This document shows positions 28,328 to 36,063 of a DNA stretch of 64,000 nt, one piece after another (position 1 is the stretch's first letter; each line of letters begins with the position of its first letter). This stretch comes from Trichodelitschia bisporula (taxonomy: Eukaryota). The notes under the pieces are model-generated. The model saw nothing but the letters and a program-made list of their open reading frames with translations, was not told the DNA's origin and made no database searches. The stretch covers positions 1,506,691-1,570,690 of the forward strand of contig ML996689.1 of NCBI GenBank assembly GCA_010356995.1. Direction: 5' to 3'. Made by a program: the position numbers and the translations under genes.

Positions 28328-29492
28328 ATGGCCCAATATGCTACCCCCCACACATTGGTTATCGTCTGTTGCCATGCTGTATACCACGGCCGTGGGTCCG
28401 GAGCCGAATCTCCCGAGGACGAAGTCTCGTGGGCCCTCGCATCTTTCCAGAAGGGCGAGCAGACGACATTCCTTCTTCATGCGGATGCTGCCCTGCGGAT
28501 TGCGCGCCGCGACCCTTCACACACAACCGTGATATTCTCAGGCGGACGGACCGCACGCGCCTACCCCGCACTCAGCGAATCCGAGTCGTATCTGGCAGCA
28601 CAAGCAGCCGTGGGGAGCTCGCTTGCAAATCTTGATGTGGATGTAGAGACATTCGCGACGGACAGTTGGCAGAATATTGTGTTTTCACTTCTACGATTTT
28701 GGTGTGTGCGTGGCGCATTCCCGCACAATATCGTTGTTGTGACGCACGCCTTCAAGACTGAGCGCTTTCTGAAGCTCCATCGTCAAGCGCTCAGGTGGCC
28801 GACAGAACAGTTTAGGGTGCTGGGGATCAATCCGCCGTTCAATGGTAAGCCGCTCGCCTCTGCGATGCTGTATGCTTGCTGCGTTTCCATTTTGCGAGTT
28901 TCCCCTTGTATTCGCCATATATGGCAAATCTCCTCGTCTTCCTACAGTATATGGTGCAGGCATGGCCGAGGCCTTGTGGCGATCCTCAATCCTCAATATC
29001 GAGATACCAGGCACAACCCCACCGCAAATCCTCTTGTTACACACCCATCCCATGCTTCAATATCGCAATGCTGGCGATGACATCACGTTAAGATATTTTC
29101 GTCCGATAAGCCATGTTTTGTAAACATTTGGCCCCTATGACATCACGCTCAACGTCTCACCCTACCTCAAACTTCTCACTGTACCGTTCACAAATTGAAT
29201 ATAATTACCACAGCCTCAACTGATCATACCAGAATCCTCACTTGTCGGCGCTCTGGCTGGCGAAGCTACCGCCTATGCCGCCTGGCAGCACGATCTCTAT
29301 GGGACGGGCACTGTTTTGAGAGCGAAGCGTGAGTCGCGCGGATGGCAACAGGAGGCGTTGGAGGAGATGTGGCGTTCGTATGGCCTCGAAGCTGAGCGGC
29401 AAGACCCAATCGTAGCGGAGCGCTGGAAACTGTTCCTGACCTGGGACGGAAGTAAGGTATACGAGGGAACCCTTCCGTGGATGCAGGGCTAG
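28328..29492 (+). CDS. DUF218-type conserved fungal protein (exons 28328-28844, 29233-29492)
   Basis: LVIVCCHAVY, VIFSGG.T, SESESY, ETFATDSWQN..FS, THAFK..RF..LH. Exon 2, which is not in the ORF track, reads ESSLVGALAGEATAYAAWQHDLYG..LRAKR..RGW...LPWMQG* in the correct phase. Confidence 0.85.
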
Positions 29493-31324
29493 GATGGGAT
29501 GGTTATTGGATATGAGCTCTGATAAGCATTTGCATCGGAGAGTTGACGATGTCTTGTTCACCTCCACGACGCCTAACCCACGCCGTGCCATTGCAGATCC
29601 CGCATCTGATGCAAAGACATCAAATGTCTTAAGCTCAGGCGTATTCAGCTTGCTGCGGGTGGCATCTCCTGGGCTGGCTGGGGCGTTTTGCGTCATGCAC
29701 GCAGAGGCTGAGGCTGAGGTCAGCTTACAGAATAATTCGCACCCTCACCATCATGCGAAATCGCTTCCCGTGTCTGAGCTATCCAGCTGGCTGCGGCTGA
29801 AGTGTGCTTAAACGTGCAGAAGCTGGCGTTCTGTGTGCGGGGGAGCTGAGAGGCCAGTTGCTTAGTAGTGGGGGAGGGAATGCATACCACAGCTAATGTA
29901 GCCTTATCTCATCCAGTAGCGTCGTGGAGAACAACCTCAGAAGCGAAGCGATATGTTGGACTAGACTCCCTCTTCTGTCAACCGATGTAGGCTTTAATGC
30001 TGCGGGTTGCCTGACGTCTAGCAGAGTTTGTCGAGGTAAGGCATCCTAGCTTACCTACGCCTAGCTTCATATGCAATCTGGCTTTGTGAGAATGAGATTT
30101 CGCTTATTGGATGGCCTGAAGGATCAAGGTTGGGCCGAGCCGTGCTCTGCGCTTCAGTACCGTACAGTCCGCTTCCATCAAGAGGATAATGCATGGTTTA
30201 TCTTCCGCTGCACCCGATGCTTCGCGACGCCTGAGTGTCCCCGTGATTTCCAACAACCGGGATAGCCCAATATATAACCGCGCTCGTTCTACAAGACAAC
30301 CTCGGAACGATAGCGAGGGTGCCTAATATCCTGCGAGCGACAGTTGCTAGCCAGAATAGTCAAGACCTCGAAGAGCCCATACGTTGTAGGCTATCAGGTT
30401 ATGCATTATTCAACTTTACCATCAGTTTTCTCAGTTTAGATTCGACGTTGACGGACTCCGTACGGCCCATAACATATCGTCCTTTGTTTGCAAAAGGCTC
30501 AAAGACCGCGAGATTATAGGTCTGTTGCTCTTCATGCCACGCACTCACTTGCAGACCAGAGATGAATGTGGGGGTGGAGCTGTGTTGTTTTCTGGACGAG
30601 GGGGCCTGGAATTCACTTAACGACAGCACAAGTGCGGGGTGCTTTCAGCGTAGAGGTTGTCTTTGATTTCATATCTGCATTCCATCTATCATTTAAACAG
30701 CATTGCCCATCGACATAATCCTCCATTGCGGCGAGTTTGTTGTCCGAACAGAGTTATCCAGGCACCAACCAGCTGTCGACGAATGAGTTCTTTTGGTCAA
30801 GCACGAGTGGTGGAGCTTCAGAGCACAATCAACGAAGACCATAGAGATCTGTATCTGCGCTAAGCTGGAACGGGAAAGGCGCGGGTGCGGCGGAAGTGAA
30901 AGCCGATGTTAAGGCCGATGGTGGATTTACCGTTTGATGGTCCACGCGACAAACTTTGAACCGTGGAACTGAGATGGACGCGTTCCTTCCATTCCTACCG
31001 TCTCTTTGCTTGAAGGCCCTTTCACTGGTTCAGTTGGGTGGTGCGCTAAGCCTTACACCCTCTTGTGACTGCAAAATCGTGGTCATTGTTGCAGTGCACG
31101 GGCCACTATATGGCCAAGCCATCCACCTACGTAAAGGATCCAAACTGCCAAACCACCACGTTCTTCGCTTTCTCTTCCTTAAATACGCCGCACCCTCCAT
31201 CACTTCCAAACCAGAACTCTTGCTACCTCTCCCCGTAGCGAAGCGCTCGAGAAATTTTGCAGCATCAGCTCCCCATTGAGATCTCCACAAACTGCAATCT
31301 CTTCACTGCATCTGCTTCTCCAAA

Positions 31325-31927
31325 GCGTCGCCCTGTGCTCCCTGTCTCCAGAACTACTTCCGTCAAAGGTAACCGCATGTTTATCCTCTTCAGTTCCTTC
31401 ATTAACTCATATTCCCGCAGCTTACGCTTCCCCTGCCCCTTGTACGACTGTCGTAAGGCTTCGACAGTTGTTCTACCTCAAGAGCCACCTTGTACTTTCC
31501 GCCTGCACTTCCGTCAGAGGTACCGTATATTTATCTGCTGGAGCTCCTTCATTAACTCATATACCGCAGCTTACGCTACATCTGCACCTTGTACGAGTAG
31601 CGCAAGACTTCGGCGGCTGTTCTATCCAGAGAGTCACCTCTGCTCTCTGCCCCTACATTCTACCCAAAGGATCACCTCTGCTCTCTACCTCCACATTCTC
31701 CCCAACGAGTCACCTCCGCTCTCTACCTCCACATTCCCCTCAAAGTGTCACCTCTGCTCTCTACCTCCACATTCTCCTCAAAGAGTTGCCCTGTGCTCTT
31801 TGCCTCTACTTCTGTCAAAGGTACCGCATATTTGTCCCCGGAGCTCCTTCAGTAACTTACATTCTCGCAGCTTACGCTACATCTACCCCTTGTACAAGTA
31901 CCGTACGACTTCGTCAGTTGTTCCACC
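31325..31927 (+). repeat. Triplicated ~110-150 bp leader unit (each copy has a 50-52 nt intron-like segment) plus a 38-bp tandem array, directly upstream of the mex67 ATG
   Basis: Three copies of CTTC(C/T)GTCA(A/G)AG|GTA..TCCTTCA.TAACT...CGCAG|CTTACGCT..CCTTGTAC. 38-bp units start at 31634, 31672, 31710, 31748 and (degenerate) 31786. Confidence 0.9.
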
Positions 31928-34084
31928 ATGGCAAAGGGGAGCAAACGCGTTGGCGCCGCCAAGTCGCGCCCCTCCGCCAGCAAAGGCAGCGATGTCGTGA
32001 TGCGGGACATTCGCGAGAAAGCAGCTCAACGCCGCCGCACAGGTCCTAAAGGCTCGGTGAAAATCGCCGTGACTGGCTTCCACTCAACATCCTGGTGGTC
32101 ACATGACCCTGGCCAGATTTCCGCCCTGGTCGAGCAGCGCATCAGCGTGTCTGAAACAGGCCCTGGCACTCGGAATACAAATGGTGGCGTCCGCAAGCGC
32201 AAGATCAAGAAGAACAATGGCTCCAAAATTCGCAAGGTTCGTTAATAATCCTCGGCACACCTGTTTTCTCGTACGGAAAGCTGCGACACTTCGGTGGTTT
32301 CCTTGACAATCCGAGCATTCTCTCTGCTCCCCGCCTATGCACGACCGCTCAAGTTAAACTGCGGCTTTGTTGAAATTCGGCTCCGGTACTTGGACGCTTT
32401 CACATGCCACGTCGGGTTTTATGCGGCGGCACATGGCACACTGAGGTCACTCCAGCAGCTGGGACGAAGCTGTGTTTTGCAAGGTAACCCTTTCATGGAA
32501 GCTAATAGATCATAGCCCGCAATTTCCGGCACTATTGCGTACCTCACGGTCAGTGGCGATCTCGCACCCAAGGTTCTCGCACTTGACGGCCTCCGCATCA
32601 AAGATGCCGTGTTGCACTTCGATACAAACGTTCGGGAGGTGCGTGTGGTGGAGGCGCTCCGCCGGGCTGCTGGATCGAGTGGCTTGAGTGAGGGCGATCT
32701 CAAAGTTCACCTTACGAACACCCTCAGTCGGCGGTTCAAAAAGGAAGCTGCGCTGTTGGATCTTTGCGGAATGGCGTACGATACGGATCTCAGCCCGCTT
32801 GGACTCCAGTTTGCGGAGCCAAGCAGCCCCTTGTTTGTGGCAATGATGGCCATTTGCGACGTGGAGTTGGGGACCGCGATGGATAAGGCCGCTTCTGTCG
32901 TCCACGTTTCTCTCGCCAACAACAATATCGGTGATTTGGAAAGCGTGGCTACGCTTGCGGAAACGTTTCCGGAACTCAAGAGCCTCGACCTCTCTGGGAA
33001 TCCCCGACTTGGCAACCAACCCAAGTTTCCGTCACTCTGGAAGCGGGAATTCAAAAAGCTCGAAACCCTTGTCTTGGACAATGGCCCCCTTCTCAGTACT
33101 GCCGATGTCCGGCATATCATTGGCTCATTCCCCCGCCTTCTCAACATCAACGGCATCAAAATCCCGGACGATTTGCGCAAGAAGGTCAAGGGGTCGTTGG
33201 TTGTTCTTCCCGGACAGTTCAAGGATGATGGCGGTGTCGGTTCCCAGTTCTTGGCCAATTTCTTCGCTGGTTATGACAACGATCGTCAGGGACTGGTGGA
33301 TTACTACTACGACGACGCTTCCATGTTTTCCCTTGTCGTCAACAATGAGGCGGCGAGGGTGTCTGACGGCATAATTCCCAAGGGAGAGTGGGCCGCCTAC
33401 ATCCACGAAAGCCGCAACCTGAAAAAGCTGGACAACCAGTCGGCACGTTTGAAGCGCAAGCACGTTGGCAAGCAATCCATTCGCAGTGTCTTCAAGGCGC
33501 TGCCTGCCACCCAGCATCCATCGCTCGCAGAGGAACCTGGCAAGTGGATGGTCGAATGCGTAATACATCCAGGTGTCCCGGACCCCACTGGACGGGTCCC
33601 AGGCGGTGTCAACGGGCTTCTGATCACCACTCATGGCGAATTCAAGGATGACCATGTTCTCAACGAAGCCCACAACGTCAAGACCCGGAGTTTCGATAGG
33701 ACATTCATCATCGGTCCAGGTAGCGAGCCTGGTAGCATTCGCATCATCAGCGACATGCTCGTCATCCGCGGCTTCGGCGGCGCCGATGCATACAACGTTG
33801 GCATTGCTACTGCTGGCGCTGCCGCCCCTCCTCCGCCCCCACTTGTCGTACAACCGGTACAGCAACTTACGCCGCAGCCGGAAATCCAGCAACCGGTCAT
33901 GCAGCAGTCGGACTCGGATGACGCGCAAAAGCAAGCTATGGTTACCGAACTCTGCAGACTGACGGGTCTGAATGTGGGCTACTCGACGTTGTGTCTCCAG
34001 GAGACTGGTTGGGCTTTTGACGCTGCCCTTCAGGCGTTTCAGTCTGCGAAGGACAGGATCCCCCCCGAAGCGTTTGCTGTTTAA
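31928..34084 (+). CDS. MEX67: mRNA export factor Mex67/NXF1 (exons 31928-32236, 32516-34084)
   Basis: LRR (VSLANNNI..L..LAETFPELKSLDLSGN), NTF2-like domain (FLANFFAGYDNDR..YDD.SMFSL..RSFDRTFIIGPG..IISDML), TAP-C/UBA (LTGLN..YS.LCL.ETGW.F..A...F....IPPEAF). Exon 1 joins in phase 0 through a GTTCGT..GCTAAT..TAG intron. Confidence 0.88.
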
Positions 34085-34123
34085 CTGAAGCGAGCAGTGG
34101 TACAGTGTGGGAGAGGAGGAATT

Positions 34124-34200
34124 GAAGGAACTTGTGTTCGGAAGGAACTGGTGTTACGGAAGGAATTCGTGCTCGGAAGGAAGTGGTGCTCAGGAGGAGC
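34124..34200 (+). repeat. ~17-bp degenerate repeat GGAAGGAA(c/t/g)TNGTG(t/c)T, four copies, downstream of the mex67 stop
   Basis: Read directly from the sequence. Confidence 0.8.
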
Positions 34201-34640
34201 GCTGGTGAAAAGGCATGAATGGGTGGACGGACTGATTTATACTGGGGTTTGTGCATCTTCATGGGATGTGTTTTCAATGGGTTGGAAACAGGGAAGGCGT
34301 TATGATGGCGGCTGTATACCCCACGACATGTTAAGGGTGTTTATGCATATGGTGTGCTATCGAAATGGGTTCTTCGCTGACAAAATGAAAAACGGTGCAA
34401 TCCATTGACAACGTGCCTCTGCCCAACGTGCATAGACTTACCCTCTGCGTTGGCCATCCTGGGCGCGGAGATACCATCCTGGGCCTCGGATGCACCTCGC
34501 GGCACGCCGCACCGCACCCGGCGGCCGAGCTCACCTCCGCCTCCCGCAACGCCTCACCAACCCACCCCCCCCCCCTCACCGCCGCCATTCTGTCGAAGCG
34601 GAATGCCCTTCTCGCCGTCTGTTCGCGGGCTGCATACACC

Positions 34641-35808
34641 ATGGCCAACATGAGACCTCACCACACGGTTCGTCTCCTCCCCAGGCTCAACGACGAGAAG
34701 CCGACGTCGCTGTGTGGACATTGACGCTGATACGCACAGGCCGCCATCGCGCGCCTCCGCGACTATACCCCTCCACCGACGACATATTTCTCCCTCCCGC
34801 TCTCGCGTCGCGCCGCAGTGCTCATATTGCTGTATGCGGACCGCGGCGGCGATTTGCGCGTCGTGCTTACTATGCGCGCGAAGACGCTGAAATCATGTGC
34901 GCCCCTCTTCCCCCCCCATTCTCAACCACCCAACTAACCCACCCCGAATAGACGCAGGCCAAGCCGCGCTCCCAGGCGGCAAAGCCGACACCGTTACCGA
35001 AACACCTTTCACTACGGCCCGCCGCGAGGCAGAGGAAGAAATCGGCCTACCCGCTTCGCCAGGCGGTCTCCCGCAGCCCTGGAGGATTACGCACCTCGCG
35101 CAACTGCCCACGAATCTTGCCCGGACGGAGTTGGGTGTAAGGCCATGCGTCGCGCTCCTCGCGCCGGATCCCGCGTACACACCTCCGCCGGGCCAACCGC
35201 TGCCGCTCGCTGAGGACGTGCTCATCCCTAGGCTCGACGCGCGGGAAGTGGCGGCTGTGTTCTCGGCGCCGCTGAGGGACTTTTTGAGGGTGGGGAGGGA
35301 GACGCGCGGGCAGCCCTGGTACGAGGGCGTGTGGATAGACTGGTATGCGACTGCGTGGCGGATGCATAATTTCTACGTCCCGGTTGAGAGCGGGCCGGTG
35401 GTTTGGGCGCCGGAGCGGGGAAACAAGGGGCGCCCGGTTGTGGCGGGGAGTTCGTTGCCTTATCGCGATATTCCGCAGCAGAGGGCACGGGGCAAGGATG
35501 AGGGGGCGAGGATGGGCGCGGGGGAGAGTGTGCCTGTTGCGGTGGGGCGGGAGGCGGCACGGTTGGTAGGGCAGGAGGAGGAGGGTGGGAGGGCGCTGAG
35601 TGCGTTTCGCGTGTTCGGGATGACGGCACGGATATTGGTTGATTGTGCGCGGGTTGCTTATGGGGAGGAACCGGAGTTTGAGCATAATTCGCATTTTGGG
35701 GATGAGGAGCTTATTGGGAAGTTGATTAAGAGTGGGCGGTTGGCGGCGGAGAGGACGCCTGGGGCGGAGATCACGAGGGAGGATTTGCTTGCTGCGTCGA
35801 AGATATGA
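34641..35808 (+). CDS. PCD1: Peroxisomal Nudix CoA diphosphatase Pcd1-like; introns 34668-34739 and ~34897-34951
   Basis: RRAAVLILL..D..G.LRVVLTMR, YAGQAALPGGKAD..ETPF.TARREAEEEIGL Nudix box, VFGMTARIL. C-terminal SKI is PTS1-like. Confidence 0.9.
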
Positions 35809-36063
35809 GATGGTAGGGCATACGTCACGATGTTGGGAAGAAGATGTAAATGAGACCATCTGTTTCGGCGCCTCCTATGGAGGACTGCCTTCTACGAATG
35901 CTAGTTTACAAGGAAATCAGAGTCTACTGGCGTGTACTGCCTGTACAAACAATGCCCAGTGATTCACGGCGCGAAGCCGCATTAGTTACCCAAAACGCCG
36001 TGCTTCCAAAGCCTCAACACCCCTCAGAGAACCAGAGAAAGTGGAGGTACACAAATCCCAAAA

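Follow-up and report, generated by a model that had tools for sequence, protein, structure and literature searches.

Tandem duplication has been reported to raise the number of introns in a gene in different ways. A pre-existing intron may be multiplied by internal tandem duplication, as in the Arabidopsis TOUCH3 gene (Gao and Lynch 2009, in PMC4974935), and an intron may be gained when a stretch of exon containing AGGT is duplicated in tandem (PMC3443670). Introns have also been linked to the control of mRNA export factors. Intron 10 of vertebrate NXF1 holds a constitutive transport element and is retained in one mRNA form (PMC4338338), while the intron of yeast YRA1 mediates an autoregulation that involves Mex67 and relies on modular Edc3 and repression elements (PMC2864733). 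The mex67 gene of Trichodelitschia bisporula, a member of the Dothideomycetes, was studied here in a 64,000-nt stretch of contig ML996689.1 (the window). The reading that we favour, with a probability of about 0.65, takes the triplication of its leader, with three spliced introns, as a by-product of duplication and, together with this, the coding intron as the candidate feedback step.

The two coding exons (Table 1) join into a 625-aa frame on the plus strand, and exon 2 shows 100% identity to a T. bisporula protein of 625 aa named mRNA export factor MEX67. The domains of a Mex67/NXF1 export receptor were recovered with Pfam (NXF_NTF2, 2e-45; TAP_C, 1e-15), the LRR match being under the cut-off. 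T. bisporula Mex67 forms the longest branch among the 51 sequences in the tree, and its exon 1, of 103 codons, is shorter than in most relatives. The transcribed 3' UTR contains a purine-rich tandem repeat of 17 bp x 3.9 at 34124-34191. Contigs of the four sequencing runs that contain the stretch were aligned to positions 30000-36000. Runs X1 and X2 are DNA and span the repeat; they may themselves be the source of the assembly, and both show an A>C difference at 34564, at a poly-C run where contigs break. Runs X3 and X4 come from one sample (S2) of one study, consist of contigs only and, their record carrying no RNA label, were judged to be RNA because they have six exact GT..AG joints and cover the intergenic DNA hardly at all (depth 0-5 upstream of 31000).

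Table 1. Features of the mex67 locus of T. bisporula (positions in the window)
Feature	Position	Strand	Basis
First leader exon; 5' bound set by where the main RNA contig ends	31152..31368	+	X3 contig
Repeat unit 1: exon head, intron and exon tail	31321..31477	+	unit alignment
Leader intron 1, 52 nt, spliced	31369..31420	+	GT..AG joint skipping 52, X3 and X4
Upstream ATG in intron 1, in a weak context; copies 2 and 3 have ATA	31377..31379	+	unit alignment
Repeat unit 2	31478..31626	+	unit alignment
Leader intron 2, 50 nt, spliced	31520..31569	+	GT..AG joint skipping 50
Four pyrimidine-rich 38-bp copies of the unit head, CAAAG-like words at bounds, exonic	31627..31778	+	TRF; within RNA piece 31568-31818
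Repeat unit 3, reaching the start codon	31779..31927	+	unit alignment
Leader intron 3, 50 nt, spliced	31821..31870	+	GT..AG joint skipping 50
mex67 coding exon 1, 103 codons, strong-context start	31928..32236	+	frame, protein match
Coding intron, 279 nt, GTTCGT donor, CAAGGT at 32480-32485	32237..32515	+	RNA joint, frame
mex67 coding exon 2: LRR, NTF2-like and TAP_C domains	32516..34084	+	domain matches, protein match

The mex67 leader is built of three exon-intron-exon units of about 150 bp that are pairwise 77-81% alike, the intron parts alone being 80-84% alike. Across the three, 102 of 157 aligned columns are invariant, which is far beyond chance, as are all nine splice-signal columns, an outcome with a chance of about 0.02 at the overall column rate. 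A GT donor, a TAAC branch-like site and a CGCAG acceptor are present in every copy, as the first-pass annotation had described. The units carry 13, 19 and 12 private sites, differences that leave the order of duplication unresolved. The 38-bp array is a copy of the unit head, which itself starts and ends with CAAAG-like words; the array had been recognized before, but the count of five copies given then is to be lowered to 4.2 (TRF), the fifth being the head of unit 3. The unit is found at a single locus, which rules out an introner family; a search for similar intron copies at unrelated loci gave one two-mismatch match elsewhere against two control matches.

A whole intron with flanking exon is repeated head to tail in the leader, as expected of intron multiplication by tandem duplication. 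Similarly to TOUCH3, as outlined in PMC4974935, two further tandem copies have been made of the intron and the exon on both sides of it, and splicing takes place in every copy; unlike that case, the unit is confined to the 5' UTR and includes a nested 38-bp expansion. The likeness to the AGGT type described in PMC3443670 is confined to the rise in intron number by tandem duplication, since each T. bisporula copy has its own donor, branch site and acceptor, and no intron lies across duplicates; the joints lie inside each unit and none spans two leader duplicates, so that creation of the AGGT type is rejected. The leader arose by a known process, of the TOUCH3 type, in which an intron already present is multiplied, and the earlier description of the locus as intron gain by tandem duplication is right as to the duplication, while "gain" is more exactly the multiplication of an existing intron (PMC4974935). 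An ancestral single-intron leader was not found among the relatives fetched (75 loci, no close relative).

Transcription of the leader can be followed in a single 933-nt contig of X3 (sample S2), which runs from 31152 through the three leader junctions to 32236 and crosses the whole repeat, its listed pieces, the array-crossing one included, having zero other letters. The mex67 transcript extends upstream to at least 31152, and the spliced leader measures 624 nt and is devoid of ATG. All three introns are skipped as GT..AG joints in both X3 and X4, so that each copy is spliced, as had been predicted. The contigs thus contain the junctions, begin upstream of a start site at about 31790 that would have left the upstream copies untranscribed, and show the repeat to be no artefact of assembly; on these three counts the leader anatomy stands. 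A further RNA contig (30982-31159, depth 3.6) lies upstream of the main 5' end and suggests minor upstream starts. No retained leader-intron form was seen in the contigs of X3 or X4, in which short minority forms may vanish during assembly, and 8 of 8 depth bins in each run were reproduced without any retained leader piece by a back-calculation in which some pieces were inferred from the joint table instead of listed contigs. The spliced form is the main form of the leader introns, and minor retention is compatible with the contig data.

At the coding intron, contig depths of the retained and the spliced form were 65.1 and 71.4 in X3 (48% retained) and 170.9 and 166.6 in X4 (51%); about half of steady-state mex67 RNA keeps this intron in the one biological sample. 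Translation of the retained form would stop at 32243-32245, giving a 105-aa product that ends ahead of the LRR, NTF2 and TAP_C domains, and an abundant mRNA that retains one coding intron with an early stop, as is the case for NXF1, was thus found in one sample. Assemblers that simplify graphs lose short minority bubbles, and the loss depends on their size. Logan contigs are made by Minia3 graph simplification (10.1101/2024.07.30.605881), which may drop retained forms of 50 nt and keep those of 279 nt, so the contrast between leader and coding introns may be overstated. The first intron of the downstream gene (34668-34739, 72 nt) has the same GTTCGT donor, and only its spliced joint was seen.

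In its retention this locus resembles the two export-factor systems. Similarly to NXF1 intron 10 (PMC4338338), the mRNA of the export receptor itself retains one coding intron with an early end of the frame, and in related fungi the mex67 intron has conserved blocks. In mex67, unlike NXF1, the intron follows codon 103, upstream of the LRR, and has no Rfam match; moreover, the short NXF1 product is described as keeping most RNA-binding regions, whereas the predicted fungal short product is without the LRR. With YRA1 (PMC2864733) it shares a large intron in an export-factor gene and a retained form that is a candidate control point involving Mex67, although YRA1 is a different gene from mex67. 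Among the matches listed in a literature search that most subscription journals lie outside, no paper dealt with the retention or conservation of a mex67 intron in filamentous fungi. The main texts of two fungal structured-RNA screens (PMC8216456 and PMC2467506) leave mex67 unmentioned and the text of a third (PMC5640933) has 0 occurrences of it, while the supplements of all three may list it.

A metagenome scan provided 75 related mex67 loci, none from a close relative of T. bisporula, of which 11 were without an anchor and 64 scorable. A phase-0 intron was found at the same codon in 57 of the 64, with the acceptor set by hand to the second-best site in 7 of the 57 (176 instead of 149 nt). 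The remaining seven comprise three loci without the intron (L008, perhaps a cDNA, L023 and L024), two that begin too near the junction (L053 and L067) and two that were counted among the 64 but not assigned either way and were dropped (L009 and L019). All but one of the 39 distinct relatives' copies measure 165-224 nt, the exception being 53 nt (L028); C-terminal introns, for comparison, are of 49-88 nt (10 recovered from 34 loci). All 40 distinct introns, that of T. bisporula included, contain a stop or shift the frame. At least two lineages are without the long intron (L023 and L024 with none, L028 with 53 nt) and would be useful natural controls. L070 had been considered as a cDNA with retained intron, which was rejected on account of its colinearity with genomic L027, to which it is 99.6% alike.

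The related loci group in clades with Dothideomycete, Aspergillus and Sordariomycete references and in two clades without a named reference, which we guess to be Lecanoromycetes and Leotiomycetes. Between one Dothideomycete clade and the presumed Lecanoromycete clade the intron cores align with a mean z of 14.4 (25 of 25 pairs above 3), whereas at these loci z is about 0 both for the leaders and for the downstream DNA; leaders of distant relatives, unlike the intron cores, fail to align with each other (0.0). Intron-core pairs with Sordariomycetes gave no alignment signal. The word CAAGGT, complementary to the bases just ahead of the branch site, stands 31-35 nt from the intron 3' end in every locus (18 of 18) from three clades and in none of the other 16 non-T. 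bisporula loci. Pairing of aligned cells reaches 91-92%, far above slid controls, with 0 double-sided base-pair changes in 11 and 21 pairs of the relatives' introns, so that compensatory structure of the NXF1/CTE type was not found in the fungal mex67 intron. The relatives' introns fold with a mean z of -0.96 (10 of 34 below -2), and their own halves pair better than swapped ones (mean z of -1.0, where each of three controls has about 0, the T. bisporula value being a length artefact); no single consensus structure was found across 30 introns. These values make secondary structure in the relatives' coding intron plausible. In some relatives (L012:3656-3823, L048:3802-3994 and kin) the 5' splice site is predicted to pair with branch-site bases, in columns that are invariant. 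No known RNA family was matched in Rfam at E<=1 in 29000-35000, nor at the gathering score in 5 related loci.

The T. bisporula intron stands apart from this group. Its donor is GTTCGT, weaker than the GTATGT of 29 of 34 relatives, and the relatives' conserved core was matched in it by neither covariance model R1 nor 14 nhmmer profiles. The model found 17 introns in 39 sources, 15 of them its training rows, and missed whole clades, so that its miss on the T. bisporula intron weighs little. Folding of the intron was no better than that of shuffles (z +1.26). Compared in sequence with its relatives, the intron appears to have lost most of their conserved blocks. CAAGGT occurs in it at -36; of the window's 119 other branch-acceptor patterns, 3 have this word. 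Two candidate elements were set aside: a conserved hairpin at 32341-32370, which no profile supports, and CAAGGT as a conserved alternative acceptor, which has no fixed frame among relatives and no such RNA joint.

When both strands of the window are searched in full, the core is matched best at 30277-30310 (+), a site that lies 1.65 kb upstream of the ATG and has an nhmmer E of 0.12 and a tile score of 27.9, against 22.7 at the next site and at most 24.3 in 14,942 other-locus tiles; 2 of 12 introns align colinearly with this region at z >3, with loose gaps. The match was noticed post hoc and may be due to chance. It lies inside a depth-5 contig of X4 (30250-30638), just past a TATA-like word. 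A relic gene duplicate at 30200-30600 was discarded for want of protein-level support (best tblastn E 0.14 among the matches listed). It has been considered that T. bisporula was rewired, export factors loaded by the splicing of the leader introns standing in for the lost element, with this site as the displaced core, which we regard as very unlikely.

The triplicated leader introns are probably a by-product of duplication. An intron-bearing piece of about 150 bp of the mex67 5' UTR was triplicated in tandem in the T. bisporula lineage, after which the first 37-38 bp of the unit were added another four times, slippage between a pair of CAAAG words being the probable cause. A half-broken intron would be a costly thing for an essential export gene to carry, which may be why the splice signals persist, and ATGs would survive only where splicing removes them; no special sensor would be needed. 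The first-pass annotation had instead viewed the leader introns as a splicing-versus-export sensor, in which early-exported, leader-retaining RNA is blocked by the ATG at 31377, giving negative feedback on Mex67, a proposal that we now consider quite improbable. As that annotation observed, this ATG is the sole one within 31300-31927, it lies in a genuine intron, and on fully unspliced RNA it opens 207 codons to 32000, crossing 31928 out of frame; more ATGs are found at 30906-31110, upstream of the main contig 5' end. The out-of-frame overlap requires retention of introns 1-3 together, though: if intron 1 is kept and intron 2 spliced, the ATG heads a 57-codon uORF with a stop at 31600, and if introns 1 and 2 are kept and intron 3 spliced, its frame is that of Mex67 and yields an N-terminal extension. 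It is present in one of the three copies, with no conservation found among copies or species, and its context is weak (C at -3 and T at +4, where the main start has A and G); with copies 2 and 3 free of ATG, triplication adds no block unless all introns are kept. An ATG confined to an intron is expected from selection against exonic ATGs, and in relatives an ATG is present in 9 of 10 C-terminal introns and, mostly via the GTATGT donor, in 30 of 34 first introns. If retained, intron 1 would create an NMD target, EJC-dependent NMD being reported in Neurospora (PMC6173133), and could escape view through this route or through assembly, but neither RNA run contains a retained leader form. In the upstream regions of relatives, proposed earlier as a check, nothing resembling an intron was matched in the 300 nt next to the ATG in any of 23 loci, with a pattern that recovers 2 of the 3 T. 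bisporula leader introns and gives 5 matches in 4 loci farther upstream. In favour of a sensor, two of the three leader frames exceed the openness expected under a repeat-aware null. Where this null gives 18-19 stop triplets, 6 occur in the leader (P 0.001-0.005), which is only partly explained and places it at the low end of the relatives' leaders, with their 1-9 stops per 250 nt; a frame open for 184 codons has a P of 0.01-0.02. The spliced leader is also open for 179 codons in frame with the main ATG and offers a TTG with A at -3 at 31257, from which a non-AUG N-terminal extension of Mex67 might be encoded. This is extremely unlikely, as the repeat copies are read in different frames, the 38-bp units shift the frame, and relatives' leaders are often open too (4-129 codons in 23 loci); Pfam gave no match for the 207-aa unspliced frame, a frame other than the extension. 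Splicing near the cap could, alternatively, load export factors and raise expression, possibly replacing a lost intronic element, so that the leader introns would be kept for their benefit. The splice signals are intact in all three copies at about 20% divergence and T. bisporula has leader introns without a detectable conserved core where most relatives show the reverse, but purifying selection against broken introns accounts equally for the intact signals and the pattern comes from one species, and such a benefit seems to us unlikely.

With the leader introns taken as a by-product, the regulated step, if there is any, would be the 279-nt coding intron, which was absent from the first-pass annotation; its general idea of control by retention fits this intron instead of those in the leader. 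More Mex67 would export or shield the pre-mRNA before the slow coding intron is spliced, resulting in less full-length mRNA. By analogy to YRA1 and NXF1 intron 10, feedback of Mex67 through the coding intron is the likeliest mechanism, at about even odds. A serious contender, although one to which we give somewhat less than an even chance, is that the intron, with its weak donor and its length, is merely slow to splice and that the retained RNA is a nuclear precursor without feedback. The divergent donor, a conserved core that is undetectable in T. bisporula, the long Mex67 protein branch and the lack of a structure signal all speak for slow splicing. Against it, the position and the long length of the intron have been kept despite sequence turnover, CAAGGT stands at -36, close to its place in the three clades, and the neighbouring intron with the same donor was seen only in spliced form, though it is just 72 nt long and subject to the same assembly caveat. 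A broader claim, that Mex67 of filamentous ascomycetes is controlled by way of a coding intron that bears an element and is retained, and that the loop is active in T. bisporula despite turnover of the element's sequence, is tentative and, in our estimate, rather doubtful.

Taken together, the leader is a clean example, confirmed by RNA, of how an intron has been multiplied within a 5' UTR, which is of modest interest by itself. The coding intron matters more, offering a defined target for the question of whether a fungal Mex67 regulates its own pre-mRNA as NXF1 and Yra1 do. Relatives of the Aspergillus clade have this intron and are genetically tractable, and T. bisporula, in which the retention is seen and the core sequence is not detected, makes a natural comparison. 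If the broader claim is true, the element-bearing coding intron would parallel NXF1 intron 10 from another place in the gene.
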